NCBI GenBank assembly: GCA_963738405.1
Contig: CAVTWJ010000023.1
Location: 224,001-288,000 of the forward strand
Length of the DNA: 64,000 nt
DNA from: a candidate division FCPU426 bacterium
GTDB lineage: Bacteria > Oederibacteriota > Muellerivitia > Muellerivitales > Muellerivitaceae
Reading direction: 5' to 3'
This document shows, piece by piece, positions 57,898-63,089 of the stretch. The notes below the pieces were generated by a model that was given only the letters and a program-made list of their open reading frames with translations, did not search any database and was not told the origin of the DNA. The position numbers were made by a program, and so were the translations under genes. The number at the start of each line of letters is the position of its first letter. Positions within the stretch are counted from its first letter, which is position 1.

Positions 57898-58074
57898 GTA
57901 TTCATTTTACCGGCTACCCGGGACTCCCCAAGGGAAAAGGAGAAAAACAAAAATGAATATTCAGGTATTTGTTGAAAGAATATCCCAGCACACATAAAAC
58001 TCTTCAAGAGGCAAAAAACGGGGATTAACTTTCATTTCGAACGTTAGGTGTTTGGAAAATGTCATGATCCCGCA

Positions 58075-59112
58075 TCAGGGCATCGCTTGATCGGGCGAAT
58101 CAATCTTCGTAACAGTCTTTCCGTCTAGTGAGAAAGCCCTTAATTCAACTGTCATGACTGTTTTTGTATCACCTAAAACACTGGTGTAGCTTTTTGTCCC
58201 TATAACTCTTACACCGACATATACATTTTGATTGTCGACAGCATCAAATTTTGCTGCATTGGTCAAATAGAACGTTCTTTGAAAACCATCTCCAGGTTCA
58301 AAAGAAATGAGGTATTCCGAATCGTTCACTTTTTGGAGAATCTTTACCATCCCAACTACTTTTTTGCCGACTAAATTTGTCCCCTGGGTGCAAAGATCAA
58401 GAAAATCATATCGTTTATCTGACGGATTTGGAGTGGGGGGTGGATACCAAACATTGGTTTCGTTAGGAGACACGACATTTAATTTTATAAAATCTTTGGA
58501 TTTATCCCCGTCTTGATATTCGAAAAATCCATTTACCATTACAACAGCGTTCACCATCTCCCCTTCCTTCAAATCGCGGAATATAGAAGAACCACTTTCG
58601 CTCGTTAAACAATAAATATTAGATTTATCGTCCCCAAATATACCGCCTAAATCAATTTGACCTGGTTGAGAATATTTCCACTTTTCATTTTCCGGAATAG
58701 GAAGTTTTACTAAATATGAATTTTTATCAACTTTTTTAAAAAGTTTAAATTCTTCAAAAAACGCACTCCCTTTTTCCGGGTTGTTTCCTTTGCCCCATAA
58801 CGTTCCAAATCCATATACGTTGTAAATTGTTTTTACAGACTGATTTTTATCAACCATTTCCAAGTTTAAGATTTTGTTGGCTCCAAAATACTTTAAATAA
58901 CTCCTCTTTTGATTCGAGGAAAGAACCATTCCCTCGCCTCCACTTAAACCATAGTTACAACCGAAACAATACATTTGAAAAGGCGGTTCCAACTGTGGGT
59001 CATTGAGGTTTGTGGATTCCAATATCAAAAAAGGTTCAGGCGTTGGAGTTGGAAGTTGCGCCGAAACATTTGACCCAATAAGAAGCAGCAATATCCAAAT
59101 CAAACTTTTCAT
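58075..59112 (-). CDS. Hypothetical secreted protein with two related beta-rich domains
   Basis: ATG 59112 overlapping upstream TGA, GGAGG RBS, signal peptide MKSLIWILLLLIGSNVSA, PTPTP linkers; AT-rich. Confidence 0.75.
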   Translation of the reverse strand: MKSLIWILLLLIGSNVSAQLPTPTPEPFLILESTNLNDPQLEPPFQMYCFGCNYGLSGGEGMVLSSNQKRSYLKYFGANKILNLEMVDKNQSVKTIYNVYGFGTLWGKGNNPEKGSAFFEEFKLFKKVDKNSYLVKLPIPENEKWKYSQPGQIDLGGIFGDDKSNIYCLTSESGSSIFRDLKEGEMVNAVVMVNGFFEYQDGDKSKDFIKLNVVSPNETNVWYPPPTPNPSDKRYDFLDLCTQGTNLVGKKVVGMVKILQKVNDSEYLISFEPGDGFQRTFYLTNAAKFDAVDNQNVYVGVRVIGTKSYTSVLGDTKTVMTVELRAFSLDGKTVTKIDSPDQAMP

Positions 59113-59879
59113 TCCGCCTCCTTTTTTATCCAATCGCCAATAGCCTTTTTGATTTTATTAGTAATTCCATGACTTCGCTGAATATTGTGGTTAAACCCAA
59201 GAACAAGTAAATCTCGGTTCAATTCAACTCCAGATATTTTTTTAATGATTCCCTTATAAGAGCGGCCTACTCCACCTTTTCTGGCAAGGAACCAATCAGG
59301 CATTATTTTTTCTTTAAAATCCACATCGAATACCTTTTTTAATACTCTTACAACACCATTCCCGTTGATTATTAAAAGTCGAATTGGAGATTCGCGGAGA
59401 AGTATTCCAAGCGTGTCTTTGCATGTTTCTAAAAGCAGTTTTTGTTGTTCAGCGTTGAGCTTAGACCATTTACATTCCGTCGCATAGGGAACCAGGTCCA
59501 AATGACAGGCTTGATTTGTTTTATCGAAATAGGAACTTTTGGTCCCTTTGATCAATTCATCCAATGGATTGAACCATTGTACATATGGATTTCCGAAGAA
59601 ATATTTTCGACATGAGTCTTGAATTAATTGTAAATGTTTTTCTTTTATCGCTTCCCAATTGATAATTCCAAGCGATTTCAAGGTGTGAAAACGCCTTTCT
59701 CGTCCATCGAGCTCTTTTTTATTTTTAACAAACTCAAGATTACTAGGATTCAATCCAAGAGTAGCAACCTTAGATTGCGTATGATCTCCAAAGGAAATAA
59801 CCGGAGCAGCCCAAGAAAATATATTTGCTTTTGATAGTCTTGGAATACTTTCAATCAGATTTAATAAGATTTTGCTCAT
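59109..59879 (-). CDS. Hypothetical protein, probable uracil-DNA-glycosylase-superfamily fold
   Basis: PVISFGD..VATLGLNPS, HLDLVPYAT, P.RLLIING, late H (FNHNI); AT-rich; ATG 59879 chosen. Confidence 0.6.
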   Translation of the reverse strand: MSKILLNLIESIPRLSKANIFSWAAPVISFGDHTQSKVATLGLNPSNLEFVKNKKELDGRERRFHTLKSLGIINWEAIKEKHLQLIQDSCRKYFFGNPYVQWFNPLDELIKGTKSSYFDKTNQACHLDLVPYATECKWSKLNAEQQKLLLETCKDTLGILLRESPIRLLIINGNGVVRVLKKVFDVDFKEKIMPDWFLARKGGVGRSYKGIIKKISGVELNRDLLVLGFNHNIQRSHGITNKIKKAIGDWIKKEAE

Positions 59880-60152
59880 TGTTTTTCGAATTATAGTTTT
59901 ATTGTTCGCAATTGATCCCCGTCCTGGACAACCCATTTCAAACAACATTATCGCGCCCGGACACCCATCCACCTTATCAAACTTTTGCACTTTTTTTGTC
60001 AGGCTCGCATACAGATAAACCCATTTTTTTAATTGCCTCTAATAAGGGTCTGAATTATTTTCGGGTTATATCAAACAGCCAATAAGCCGTTGGCTTTCAT
60101 TTAGCTCAAGGCCAATAGCTAAAATCCAATGGCTGTTATTTGGAGGTTCAAT

Positions 60153-61217
60153 ATGTCTCAAAATCTAGATTTTAAAAAAATCCCCCTTTCCAAAATCATG
60201 CCGAACTTTGATCAGCCCCGGCGGATGTTCAAACCTGGGTCTACCCAATCCATGGCCGAATCCCTACTGGCCGTAGGCCAGCAAACCCTCGCCAAGGTGC
60301 GCCGCCTGACGGATGAGGAAAAAGCCTCTTACTCTTACTTTGACTACGAATGGCCCGTGGGTACGACCGCACCTAAAAAATCGAATGGTGAGTTCGGCTT
60401 CGAATACATGATGATCGGGGGTCACCGGCGCTTGGCAGGTGCCAAATTGGCGGCCTTTGAGACCCTAGATTGCGTCATTATGGATGTCGCCCCTGAAGAC
60501 ACCCACCTCGCCTCCCTAATGGACAATAGCAATGTCGAGATGAGCTGGTGGGACTGGGATTTAGCCATTGAAAAGGAACACCTTCTTCACCCAAATCTGT
60601 CCCAAAGGGAGCTGGCTAAGCGTTTAGGCGTATCCAAAAGCAAGGTGAATAATGCCTTAAAGATATTAGCGGTTCTAAATAAGCTTAGCCGAGGTTCGAT
60701 TGATATGAACTTGGACAAAGTCCCACTCGATGGGGATTTCCATCCCCCAACCTCTGACCAACCCCAGGATGTAGAGGGTGACCCTGTCCAGACTCTGGAC
60801 AAAACCAAGCCCGATTATGAGATTACCGAATATGTTTTACTGGCTTTAGCCGACCTTGAAGATCCGGCTTATGTGAGTGATACCTTGGACATCATAATCG
60901 ACAATAAAATGAATCTCGGATTAGCCAAAAAATTGATCGAATTCGTAATGAACGGGGGTGAGCCCGAAGCTTTTGATCCCAAAAAGGCTTCTACTGGCAA
61001 AGAGAAAGAAGAGGACCCCTTCGCGGAAGACTGGAAGGGTTTAGGGAAGGACATAAAGGTCAAACACAAGGGCGGTGAGGATTACGAGATCAAACTGGCC
61101 GTGACTGGGGGAGAAAAGGCCTTTGAGATTGTTCAGGCCGCCCAAAGGACACTAGAGGGGGGCCTAGTCGAAAGGTTATCCAAAATCTTCACTGGTATGG
61201 ACAACCCTAAATCATAG
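60153..61217 (+). CDS. Orphan ParB/Spo0J/KorB-like protein (CTPase N-domain + HTH)
   Basis: IPLSKIMPN..QPRR.F, GGHRRL, SLMDN, SQRELAKRLGVSKSKVNNAL; ATG 60153 after GGAGG; no parA nearby. Confidence 0.88.
   Translation: MSQNLDFKKIPLSKIMPNFDQPRRMFKPGSTQSMAESLLAVGQQTLAKVRRLTDEEKASYSYFDYEWPVGTTAPKKSNGEFGFEYMMIGGHRRLAGAKLAAFETLDCVIMDVAPEDTHLASLMDNSNVEMSWWDWDLAIEKEHLLHPNLSQRELAKRLGVSKSKVNNALKILAVLNKLSRGSIDMNLDKVPLDGDFHPPTSDQPQDVEGDPVQTLDKTKPDYEITEYVLLALADLEDPAYVSDTLDIIIDNKMNLGLAKKLIEFVMNGGEPEAFDPKKASTGKEKEEDPFAEDWKGLGKDIKVKHKGGEDYEIKLAVTGGEKAFEIVQAAQRTLEGGLVERLSKIFTGMDNPKS
60785..60808. promoter_or_regulatory. Putative parS-like palindrome inside the ParB-like gene
   Basis: TGTCCAGACTCTGGACA perfect inverted repeat; 24 bp identical to 61358-61381. 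Confidence 0.6.
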
Positions 61218-61234
61218 GCCTAACGCAGCTAACG

Positions 61235-61325
61235 CTCTCCCCTTGAGGGAGAGGGCCAGGGTGAGGGACGTCGTATGTCGCAATATCACCCTCATCCCAT
61301 CCTTCTCCCCTCAAGGGAGAAGGAG
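61235..61325. repeat. REP/REPIN-like palindromic element
   Basis: CTCTCCCCTTGAGGGAGAGGGCCAGGGTGAGGG .. CCCTCATCCCATCCTTCTCCCCTCAAGGGAGAAGG; two self-palindromic arms in inverted orientation. Confidence 0.8.
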
Positions 61326-61356
61326 TTATGCGCGTAAACAAACATTCGCTCAGTCC

Positions 61357-61381
61357 TTGTCCAGACTCTGGACAAAACCAA
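61357..61381. promoter_or_regulatory. Second parS-like palindrome, upstream of TA promoter
   Basis: TTGTCCAGA-C-TCTGGACAA perfect 19-bp inverted repeat + AACCAA. Confidence 0.6.
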
Positions 61382-61388
61382 AGTGGCC

Positions 61389-61417
61389 TTGATTAGTATT
61401 ATCTAAAGTAATATATT
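61389..61417 (+). promoter_or_regulatory. Putative sigma70 promoter of the TA operon with overlapping GTAATA/TATTAC-type operator repeats
   Basis: TTGATT-17 nt-TATATT; GTAATATATTTAC, TACAATACATTTTGTA and TGTATTACA nearby. Confidence 0.55.
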
Positions 61418-61448
61418 TACAATACATTTTGTAGTAGGAGTGTATTAC

Positions 61449-61721
61449 ATGAGTGTCATTACAATCCGACTGGATGAGAAGCTAGAAAGCCTGCTGAACC
61501 AGGAAATTCAACTCGCAGATAAATCCAGGTCCGACCTGGTTCGTGAGGCCCTGGAACAATACTTGGCTTACCGCAACCAGGAACGCCTCAAGCAATCCAT
61601 CGTCCAGGAAATGAAAAACCTGCCGGAGGATGCCAGGCGGGAAGGCCTGTCTGTGGCTGAGGACTTCCTTCCCTATTCCGCTGTGGACTCGCATGAAAAG
61701 GGCGGCCCATGGTGGAAATAA
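61449..61721 (+). CDS. Ribbon-helix-helix (CopG-type) antitoxin
   Basis: ITIRLDE..L..SRSDLVREALEQYL; AGGAG RBS; overlaps toxin start. Confidence 0.88.
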   Translation: MSVITIRLDEKLESLLNQEIQLADKSRSDLVREALEQYLAYRNQERLKQSIVQEMKNLPEDARREGLSVAEDFLPYSAVDSHEKGGPWWK

Positions 61722-62068
61722 ACAGGGGTGAGGTTTGGGTAGCCAACCTAAGCCCCGCCCAAGGCGGTGAAGTGGGTAAGACCCGGCCGGTGCTGGTTCT
61801 TCAAGATAACGCCCTAACCCGTGAAGGGGCTGAAACCATCGTCATCCTTCCTCTGACCTCGCAGGTCCGGCCCGAAATTCAGCACCTGCGGATGACCCTG
61901 CCTGCCCGGGGCCGCCTCTTACGGGACAGCCAAGTGATCGTGGAAAAGCCCATGACCCTGGACCGGCTCCGCCTGGTGGAAGGCCCCCTGGCCAGTTTGA
62001 CCACGGGTGAAATGGCGGCGGTGGAACGAACTCTCTTGGTGGTCTTAGGCCTGGCCCGGCTGACTTAG
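61709..62068 (+). CDS. PemK/MazF-family endoribonuclease toxin
   Basis: RGEVWVANL.P..G.E.GKTRPVLVLQ, PLTS, RL..PL. Confidence 0.92.
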   Translation: MVEINRGEVWVANLSPAQGGEVGKTRPVLVLQDNALTREGAETIVILPLTSQVRPEIQHLRMTLPARGRLLRDSQVIVEKPMTLDRLRLVEGPLASLTTGEMAAVERTLLVVLGLARLT

Positions 62069-62081
62069 AACTAGGGCAAGT

Positions 62082-63089
62082 TTATTTGGCCTGTTGCCAT
62101 TTTTTGACCCGAAGGATATGTTTCGCGATCTGGATATTCTTGTCATGTTCCTCAAGGGTCGTAGCGAACAGATGGGAACCATCTCCCTTGGCAACATAGT
62201 AGAGATAGGGTACCTGGGCAGGTTGAGCCACGGCTTCAAGGGAGGCGAAGCCTGGGTTGCAGATGGGCGTGGGGGGAAGTCCCCGTTTGAGATAAGTATT
62301 GTAGGGCGTCTTAACATCCAATTGTTTCTGGCTGAACCAGGGGTTCTTGCTGTTCAAGACATAGTTAAGGGTGGCATTCACCTGAAGCCGCATCTTTTGC
62401 CGGAGCCGGTTATACATCACCCCCGCAATGATCGGCCGTTCGGTATCAAGTTTCGCTTCCTTCTCGACAATCGAAGCCAAAATCACCCCCTGGTAAAGGG
62501 TCAGCCCCTGGGCCTTTAACTGGGCCTCGTAATCATCCCCCACTTCCTGCTGAAACTGGCGCACCAAAAGCCCCAAAAGATCCGGGATACTCGCACCCAC
62601 CGGAATGCGGTAGGTTTCGGGATATAGAAAACCCTCCAGGCTGAGGCCCTTGATCCCAAAACTTTTTAGGACGGCCGGGTCCTTGGCTCCGTTTAAAAAA
62701 TCGGCGGCTTTCGCGACTTTCAATCGTTCCAGCTCCATTCCAATCTGCTCGGCGGTATAGCCCTCGGGAATCTTGAGGGCCTGAAGTTCGCTTTTTCCCT
62801 CGGTCAAAACATTCAGCACTTCCCAAAAACTCATCCGGGGGTTCAAGCGGTAAAGACCCGCCTTGAGCTTGCGGTCCGCGCCGGTCAGTTTGGCGGCCAA
62901 GCGGAAGGGAGTTGAAAAGGCTAAGATTCCTTTTTCTTGAAGAAGGTCTGCAATTCCCCGCGCGGTCGATTTGGAATAAACCGCGATATCCATATCGGCT
63001 CCGGATCGGTAAAAGGGAGGAATAAAAAACAAGGTCCCGGCCAGGGCTAAAGCCGCAAAAAATATTCCGTACCATTTGAGGATTTTCAT
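62082..63089 (-). CDS. mltG: Endolytic transglycosylase MltG
   Basis: KAGLY, IPEG, LEGFLYPETY, LASIVEKE, PYNTY, GLPPTPI.NPG. Confidence 0.95.
   Translation of the reverse strand: MKILKWYGIFFAALALAGTLFFIPPFYRSGADMDIAVYSKSTARGIADLLQEKGILAFSTPFRLAAKLTGADRKLKAGLYRLNPRMSFWEVLNVLTEGKSELQALKIPEGYTAEQIGMELERLKVAKAADFLNGAKDPAVLKSFGIKGLSLEGFLYPETYRIPVGASIPDLLGLLVRQFQQEVGDDYEAQLKAQGLTLYQGVILASIVEKEAKLDTERPIIAGVMYNRLRQKMRLQVNATLNYVLNSKNPWFSQKQLDVKTPYNTYLKRGLPPTPICNPGFASLEAVAQPAQVPYLYYVAKGDGSHLFATTLEEHDKNIQIAKHILRVKKWQQAK

Follow-up and report, generated by a model that had tools for sequence, protein, structure and literature searches.

We investigated a 64,000-nt window of the genome of a candidate division FCPU426 bacterium (contig CAVTWJ010000023.1), in which the gene of a ParB-like protein lies upstream of a toxin–antitoxin pair, and here we discuss a palindrome that occurs both inside this gene and in front of the promoter of the pair. 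Coordinates are positions in the window; where handles are used, G denotes genomes (G000 being the window's own), C contigs, and L loci. The genome comprises 3.18 Mb in 23 contigs and is 90.7% complete.

The ParB-like gene (60153-61217, + strand) has GGAGG 7 nt before its ATG, shares this start with its homologs, and encodes 354 amino acids (aa). Judged from its sequence and predicted fold, the product is a member of the ParB/Spo0J/Noc superfamily, with a ParB-CTPase fold and a helix-turn-helix (HTH). Pfam matches included HTH families and ParB_N, the latter with 27.1 bits against a cut-off of 26.3, the narrow margin being due to an insertion within the domain, which is split by it. A profile of 19 homologs matched Spo0J, ParB, and Noc chains with E values from 4e-15 (Spo0J, 4.2e-15) to 2e-7, in two pieces flanking this insertion. 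An earlier reading made from the letters of the window alone (hereafter, the sequence-only reading) had placed an insertion before the GHRR motif; it is real, as the profile alignment to Spo0J jumps approximately 30 profile positions there, and it is shorter in 3 of the 19 aligned homologs. Box I (QPR) and Box II, the GxxRxxA arginine motif (here G-G-H-R-R...A), aligned to the ParB motifs and were invariant in the 19 homologs, the invariant residues of Box II being G89, G90, H91, R92, R93, and A97. Foldseek ranked Noc first (2.9e-11), followed by ParB and KorB (KorB chain 8qa9, E = 5.6e-8); no KorB chain was among the PDB sequence matches at E ≤ 1, and KorB was thus a fold match only.

The AlphaFold2 model (mean pLDDT 76) consists of a ParB-like N-domain, helices 132-187 including the HTH, a disordered loop at residues 191-219 within the DNA-binding domain (pLDDT < 50; coded by 60723-60809, + strand), helices 226-266, and a beta-beta-alpha-alpha C-terminal domain. 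The helices after the loop still align to the DNA-binding domain of Noc/ParB (profile alignment, chain 6y93, query residues 226-292). For residues 286-354, a homodimer with antiparallel strand pairing was predicted with a score of 0.48, against 0.00 for the best control; 20 of 30 known pairs attained this score, as did 1 of 23 single chains; contacts agreed by at least 95% over three runs, and the partner pLDDT was at least 67. This prediction supports dimerization via the C-terminal domain.

All open reading frames (ORFs) scanned at 47-64 kb belong to families other than ParA, which bears out the earlier statement that parA is missing nearby, and the N-termini of the 19 aligned homologs show no visible ParA-binding motif. 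The canonical ParB of this genome lies elsewhere, on contig C14 (108.8 bits), and contig C18 carries two canonical parS-like sites, found with the parS consensus. The protein encoded in the window scored below the cut-offs of both the canonical partition ParB (NCBIfam parB_part, 44.4 vs 58.45) and the Noc equivalog (TIGR04285, 52.8 vs 315 bits).

Downstream on the + strand are the genes of a ribbon-helix-helix (RHH; CopG-type) antitoxin (61449-61721; Pfam RHH_1, E = 2.2e-8) and a PemK/MazF-type toxin (61709-62068; Pfam PemK_toxin, E = 3e-21). The antitoxin comes first and the two genes overlap at 61709-61721, the arrangement of type II RHH–PemK/MazF pairs. Their promoter-like site (61389-61417, + strand) has hexamers at 61389-61394 and 61412-61417, a 17-nt spacer, and 9 of 12 consensus matches.

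The ParB-like gene and the region before this promoter share a 24-mer, at 60785-60808 and 61358-61381, without mismatches, exactly as the sequence-only reading had stated; two matches were obtained in none of 100 dinucleotide-preserving shuffles, and the shared stretch extends to 27 nt with one mismatch (60782-60808 vs 61355-61381). Each copy holds a perfect odd palindrome, which we assign to no strand. The intragenic one (8+1+8, 60785-60801), our proposed cognate site 1, encodes residues 211-217, within the disordered segment. The second (9+1+9, 61357-61375), a proposed operator or loading site of the toxin–antitoxin promoter, ends 13 nt before the first hexamer, which is the distance to the −35 box given previously. 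The dyad is odd-centred and of another sequence than canonical parS, from which it had indeed been said to differ.

The genome-wide scan that had been suggested as a check found the 17-nt palindrome at three places in the whole 3.18-Mb genome (reversed-pattern control, 0): the one additional exact copy lies on contig C23, in a non-coding array 130 kb from the window copies (G000:C23:415254-415270). Perfect odd palindromes with arms of at least 8 nt number 101 in this genome, approximately 1 per 31 kb. A half-site (8 of 9) at 59923, reported to lie upstream of a gene resembling uracil-DNA glycosylase (UDG), was at chance level (18 window matches with at most one mismatch vs 15.1 expected; 30 of 100 shuffles reached 18). 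We ruled it out as a third local site, and because it is a chance match, the suggested control of this "glycosylase" gene by the palindrome is unsupported. No known RNA family matched 59.8-62.2 kb in Rfam at E ≤ 0.1; no RNA runs sharing words with 59900-62100 were listed, and one soil-metagenome DNA run had a small share.

The same three genes occur in different surroundings on a metagenome contig, L007, with aa identities to the window of 68.8% (ParB-like protein), 85.6% (antitoxin), and 92.4% (toxin). There are two blocks of nucleotide homology (60139-61170 and 61356-62062); the latter starts at the palindrome and ends at the toxin end. The hairpin-rich spacers that separate the blocks are different in the two loci; in the window, the stretch between the ParB-like gene and site 2 holds two G+C-rich hairpin repeats (61236-61323, no strand) with related copies on C18 (33 nt, 97%) and C9 (35 nt, 89%). 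Both loci have a perfect 9+1+9 dyad 13 nt before the −35 hexamer, its centre 83 nt before the antitoxin ATG. The two extragenic dyads differ by one compensated pair beside the centre, and the promoter hexamers are conserved. That the dyad and its spacing were kept while the rest of the spacer diverged argues for a functional second copy rather than the chance duplication scar that had been considered as an alternative.

Palindromes in related genes

We examined the loop-coding stretch in homologs of the ParB-like gene. A word-indexed search returned 30 clusters, and an exhaustive search returned 110 representatives at E ≤ 1e-30 and 783 at E ≤ 1e-10; homologs were found mainly in the window's taxonomic family (16 of the 30 other genomes there vs 3 of 68 elsewhere in the phylum). 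DNA of related loci was drawn from genomes and metagenomes, with the loop located by tblastn from query residues 186 to 224, and after 13 twice-fetched loci were dropped, 48 remained, among which are two (near-)identical pairs (L075/L076 and L046/L062). In 33 of the 48 loci, the loop-coding stretch held at least one perfect palindrome centred on a single nt, with arms of 7 nt or more. The density of such palindromes was 8.84/kb in the loop stretch (48 in 5,429 nt) compared with 0.155/kb in the flanks (49 in 315,406 nt), and their sequence varies locus by locus. In addition, all eight further paralogs examined carry a palindrome at residues 164-226, two being identical copies and one having a 3-nt centre.

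Where a gene has multiple palindromes, they are spaced by 42 bp, which corresponds to 14 codons and four helical turns. This spacing was seen in L008, L013, L014, L016, G053, G049, G051, and two long paralogs of the window's genome. One gene (L071:6378-6618; G051:C3:264833-265017) has five units in the 42-bp register, one of them degenerate, translated as a 14-residue repeat. In two genomes, (near-)identical paralog copies, palindrome included, lie on two contigs (L075/L076 on G054:C2 and C4; L100/L101 on G068:C10 and C22), which points to recent duplication or a mobile context. An 857-aa homolog (L017:594-608, L018:595-609) has a 15-nt odd palindrome approximately 630 bp upstream of its ORF, which resembles the KorB operator consensus, and a separate small dyad at residue 261.

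The palindromes are not explained by the peptide that they encode. We recoded each loop synonymously 2000 times in 46 loci (L076 and L062 left out), and the observed arm length was matched by at most 1% of recodings in 26 of the 46 loci and by at most 0.1% in 18; in the window, it was retained in 0.1% of the recodings. Furthermore, 26 of 27 palindromes are centred on the middle base of a codon. The rarity of matching recodings and the fixed codon phase indicate that the peptide follows the DNA and not the reverse. The one deviating case in codon phase is the frameshifted L006 (L006:7911-9334, a paralog in the metagenome-assembled genome G068), in which a frame change at the palindrome splits two ORFs; a pseudogene, a sequencing slip, or a programmed shift is possible.

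The two arms also change together. In a census of the best odd-centred dyad per locus (45 distinct sites, of which 44 had 6 or more of the 9 pairs; ten further paralog sites stand outside this census and the Mantel tests below), 257 of 264 pairs at dyad positions 2-7 were Watson–Crick, with three to four pair types per position. Eight or nine of nine pairs were reached in 34 of 46 loops but in only 2 of 46 equal-length upstream windows of the same ORFs. Pairing fades past position 9, and we therefore take the site to be 17-19 bp long.

The divergence of half-sites was correlated with that of HTH residues 148-172 (38 loci, r = 0.553; Mantel tests, which leave shared ancestry in). The partial correlation was 0.505 given the N-domain and 0.544 given either neighboring segment, values reached in none of 3000 permutations. 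Conversely, half-site divergence was uncorrelated with helix 173-187 (r = 0.12) and with the post-loop helices 224-266 (r = 0.126), and the segment before the HTH had a partial r of 0.051 once the HTH was accounted for. Because the uncorrelated segments 173-187 and 224-266 are those that sit nearer the palindrome, linkage or conversion tracts are not the cause. The columns carrying the signal (152, 161, 162, 157, 143, and 164) include the start of the two HTH helices. The sequence-only reading had asked whether homologs carry co-varying palindromes at the same position; they do, and these palindromes co-evolve with the HTH. This lends strong support to the central proposal of that reading, namely that the gene brings its own cognate palindrome with it.

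Paralogs, distant copies, and surroundings

The window's genome contains at least 10 further ParB-like paralogs of 539-822 aa (L090-L099; contigs C19, C6, C5, C14, C22, C23, C16, and C1). These share the N-domain, the HTH, and the post-loop helices and have long C-terminal parts; in ten of them, Pfam recognized no domain besides ParB_N and HTH. Several of them also carry a palindrome of their own where the loop is coded, and in two (on C16 and at C23:146116) it is present twice, 42 bp apart.

An extragenic copy within 6-8 kb of the gene was present only in the window and L007. Exact extra copies beyond the gene occur in four genomes and were found for the short subfamily only. Besides the window's genome, G053 has two intragenic and two distant exact copies; G049 has three intragenic, one distant exact, and two distant one-mismatch copies; and G051 has three exact and one one-mismatch intragenic copies and three distant exact ones (control 0 in each of these three genomes). 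All six distant sites of the short subfamily that we examined, including the third copy of the window's genome, sit in non-coding arrays of odd palindromes, which differ from each other, are 40-65 bp apart, and in many cases belong to the half-site class of the cognate site. The window's genome has eleven such clusters. The arrays, to which no strand applies, are located at L003:1431-1665 (G000:C23:415184-415420), L108:1263-1931, L109:2116-2292, L110:2116-2433, and L111:2691-2744, and in L082, L085, and L086. Their units carry a short A-rich/GGG/T-rich flank that resembles the post-loop coding sequence of the genes.

Three ideas about these arrays were rejected. They are not recognizable as decayed ParB-like genes, since tblastn of 30 family proteins against eight array loci gave a best E of 0.002 over 15 residues. 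The idea of hubs with one exact site for each paralog of the same genome was not borne out, as the G068 and G053 arrays hold only near-cognates of the long paralogs' sites, and the long-paralog palindromes of the window's genome have one exact copy each. Nor does the third copy lie in a dispersed repeat family, as its flanks match only locally.

We searched the neighbors of 14 related loci against Pfam and found no ParA in these neighborhoods. Apart from L007, the other 13 loci have unrelated neighbors, some of which are mobile- or defence-like (transposase, Mrr, HEPN, and PIN). Specifically, a transposase (rve), an Mrr-type restriction endonuclease, or a HEPN protein was observed at L070:7948-9000, L004:10170-11063, and L071:4211-4621. 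These neighbors give hints of mobile or defence-rich surroundings for part of the family. We did not retain the idea that the cassette is a known anti-phage defence system: the PADLOC models gave two weak matches of approximately 19 bits, both to the HTH region of the ParB-like protein, and none for the other eight proteins.

The cassette forms the right part of a 4.1-kb island (57966-62081, no strand) between a cation-efflux gene and yceG, delimited by homology breaks at approximately 57966 and at 62081-62094. In all three same-genus genomes, the cation-efflux gene and ftsEX come immediately after yceG, and none of six relatives has any of the five island genes at this place. The left part has 35-37% G+C compared with approximately 55% around. 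No integrase, relaxase, or replication gene was found among the island genes, and there is no tRNA beside the island at 50-64 kb. The left part holds two AT-rich ORFs (58075-59990, − strand) without family assignment, of which 58075-59133 starts with a hydrophobic leader-like stretch. The other (59109-59879; longer ORF to 59990) had been called UDG-like. This name has a weak lead, in that the nearest Atlas cluster with a family scores 0.92 and has UDG on 29% of its members, but the ORF matched nothing in Pfam or NCBIfam. Its nearest Atlas clusters are hypothetical proteins, and their few phylum-assigned members are mostly phage (Uroviricota).

Mechanism and rival explanations

Because the palindrome is retained at the DNA level, its pairs covary, and its divergence tracks that of the HTH, it is most likely the protein's own binding or loading site, and we hold this view with considerable confidence. 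Somewhat more cautiously, we favor as the explanation of the whole a ParA-less dimer of the ParB/Noc/KorB kind that would recognize the dyad in its own gene as well as sites beyond it; binding, regulatory sign, and nucleotide use are what we infer from the data above. The HTH would read the 17-19-bp dyad that lies in the coding stretch of the disordered loop, within the same DNA-binding domain. In the simplest account, the site is kept in this part of the gene, the peptide of which is unconstrained, and since the site lies inside its own gene, gene and site would be inherited as one unit. Binding or loading at the gene may lead to self-control or to a local nucleoprotein complex, and the same could occur at the non-coding array of related palindromes 130 kb away. 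The window's lineage would have placed an extra palindrome copy before the toxin–antitoxin promoter, and binding or loading there, 13 nt upstream of the −35 hexamer of the RHH–PemK operon, may act jointly with the RHH antitoxin in a KorB–KorA-like layout. That the protein controls this promoter, probably together with the antitoxin, is slightly less likely than not. That it closes into a sliding clamp gated by a nucleoside triphosphate, as its fold and motifs may allow, is somewhat less likely still, and the putative release of the toxin on shortage of cytidine triphosphate (CTP) is very unlikely.

Several observations weigh against our favored explanation. In 15 of the 48 loci, no such palindrome (perfect, 1-nt centre, arms ≥ 7 nt) was found in the loop; the dyad centre is 3 or 5 nt in most of these, L072 has only a degenerate repeated dyad, and L048, L057, and L059 have none. 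In L007, it is the extragenic copy that is perfect, the two copies within the gene having lost their inner two pairs; the best copy thus need not be the intragenic one. Most long paralogs of the window's genome have no exact copy of their palindrome in that genome besides the one in the gene. The shared ancestry left in by the Mantel tests belongs here as well. A downstream toxin–antitoxin pair was found in only 1 of the 14 related loci scanned, L007, as in the window; the linkage is confined to these two and is not supported as a family trait. Thus, of the earlier expectation that homologs would neighbor toxin–antitoxin or defence genes, the former part is borne out in L007 alone, and the latter may hold for part of the family. 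Finally, Box III (ENLQR-type) of the CTP pocket is divergent and only partly kept: D124-N125 is invariant and aligned to E-N, and the arginine is missing. According to a survey of orphan ParBs, Box III is often divergent in these proteins and their nucleotide specificity is not yet readable from sequence (10.1101/2025.10.10.680097).

Three rival explanations are weaker than recognition of the palindrome by the protein itself. The palindromes could be selfish or recombinogenic units (REP/BIME-like or in-frame elements) that spread by slippage or copying into tolerant places and that the protein does not bind. Tandem 42-bp duplications inside genes fit this, as do arrays with many different odd palindromes and a unit flank resembling post-loop coding sequence, and the 27 nt shared by the window copies include asymmetric flank and thus point to copying. 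However, each palindrome is private to one paralog lineage and mostly present as a single exact copy in the window's genome, its place and codon phase are constant in 26 of 27 cases, and the repeats at the third locus are not dispersed in the genome. Moreover, copying by itself would not make the palindromes covary specifically with the HTH while leaving the neighboring gene segments uncorrelated, as is observed; we consider such units improbable. An mRNA hairpin or DNA cruciform that controls translation pausing, mRNA stability, or processing independently of DNA binding by the protein is the least probable of the three. In its favor, compensatory changes preserve complementarity, as in structured RNAs, the palindrome keeps its place within the ORF, and conservation is lowest at the innermost pair (32 of 44), fitting a loop that opens. 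On the other hand, G:T accounts for 5 of the 38 mismatches at positions 1-9, with no excess over the approximately one in six expected by chance, and a 1-nt centre is too small for an RNA loop. No Rfam family matched, exact copies lie outside the gene, before the promoter and in arrays, and co-evolution with the HTH is unexpected for an RNA hairpin.

We also find it unlikely that the cassette is the remnant of a plasmid or integrative element, in which a former partition centromere and a PemK addiction module persist with neither now regulating the other. Against it stands that no ParA was found in the window or the 14 scanned neighborhoods, nor is a ParA-binding motif visible at the aligned N-termini. 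The island that contains the cassette is absent from three of three congeners, and the cassette has other flanks in L007, both of which speak for such a remnant; ParB with a toxin–antitoxin pair is a common plasmid pairing, and tandem repeats of approximately four turns with inverted repeats recall sopC of the F plasmid. Nevertheless, the island lacks an integrase, a relaxase, and a replication gene, the window's genome has at least 11 chromosomal paralogs, and the spacing between site and promoter is exactly conserved.

Beyond recognition of its own site by this one protein, a bolder extension, which we regard as unlikely though less so than the three rivals, is that of a large, fast-diversifying, "self-addressed" family. 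In this uncultured lineage, at least 11 paralogs in the window's genome would each keep a private palindrome, in many cases as 42-bp tandem repeats, in their own loop and form orthogonal pairs that duplicate, move, and diverge together. Arrays of cognate and near-cognate palindromes would then serve as landing pads or hubs, and the site at the toxin–antitoxin promoter would be one captured output.

Relation to known systems

We rate the cassette as a variant of the ParB–parS, KorB–OB, or BisD–bisS kind. Chromosomal ParB–parS and Noc–NBS provide the best relatives of the ParB-like protein in sequence and fold. The parS site is canonically an even palindrome of 16 bp, conserved from phylum to phylum, whereas the palindromes here are odd, specific to the individual paralog, and fixed in their position in its gene, and there is no ParA. 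In sopC of the F plasmid, tandem repeats of approximately four turns each have an inverted repeat bound by the ParB-type SopB; sopC is non-coding and lies downstream of sopB, whereas the 42-bp repeats here are translated as 14-residue repeats of the disordered loop. The toxin–antitoxin pair resembles type II RHH–PemK/MazF pairs in its RHH_1 and PemK_toxin families, its overlapping genes, and its A+T-rich promoter with short repeats, but it differs from typical ones by the extra palindrome upstream of −35 that matches the internal site of the neighboring ParB-like gene.

KorB of RK2 differs in being plasmid-borne and part of a partition system, whereas the sites here are private to each paralog, and no operator is known inside a disordered-loop coding stretch of korB. 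The KorB–OB/KorA system is alike in combining a ParB fold and an HTH with a palindromic operator just upstream of −35 and a small repressor at −10; published KorB operators precede promoters by 4-10 bp, and the KorA operator sits at −10 (PMC11790492). BisD (ICEclc, Pseudomonas) is likewise ParB-like without a partition role and has an odd-centred site inside coding sequence, bisS being an 11-bp inverted repeat with one central nt that lies inside genes in two copies 2 kb apart. However, bisS is located in inrR and ssb and not in bisD, and BisD has an activator domain and a partner, BisC (PMC12409273). In B. subtilis, parS-359 lies within parB (PMC4442127). An RNA structure described "within the parB gene" of Caulobacter was discarded as a precedent, as it concerns the mRNA 5′ end (10.64898/2026.07.07.737113).

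We found no description of a family-wide, co-varying, self-encoded site in the open-access literature, and the accessible main text of the 2025 survey of orphan ParBs (10.1101/2025.10.10.680097) does not contain "intragenic", "own gene", or "coding sequence". Private sites of ParB-type proteins (parS, NBS, OB, and bisS) are already known; what would be new is a family that keeps the site in the coding sequence of its own variable loop.

If the reading of the palindrome as the protein's own site is true, the family would offer more than 40 natural, matched protein–site pairs from which to read the recognition code of ParB-type HTHs, with positions 152, 157, 161, 162, and 164 as candidates, and DNA loci could be labelled with orthogonal ParB/site pairs taken from it. 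The window itself would provide a testable case of a toxin–antitoxin promoter with a second, ParB-type input. Such genes would show how a DNA-binding protein can, by simple means, remain linked to its site when it is duplicated or horizontally transferred, and, should the less likely "self-addressed" family exist, it would be a previously undescribed way to build chromosomal address-tag or regulatory networks.

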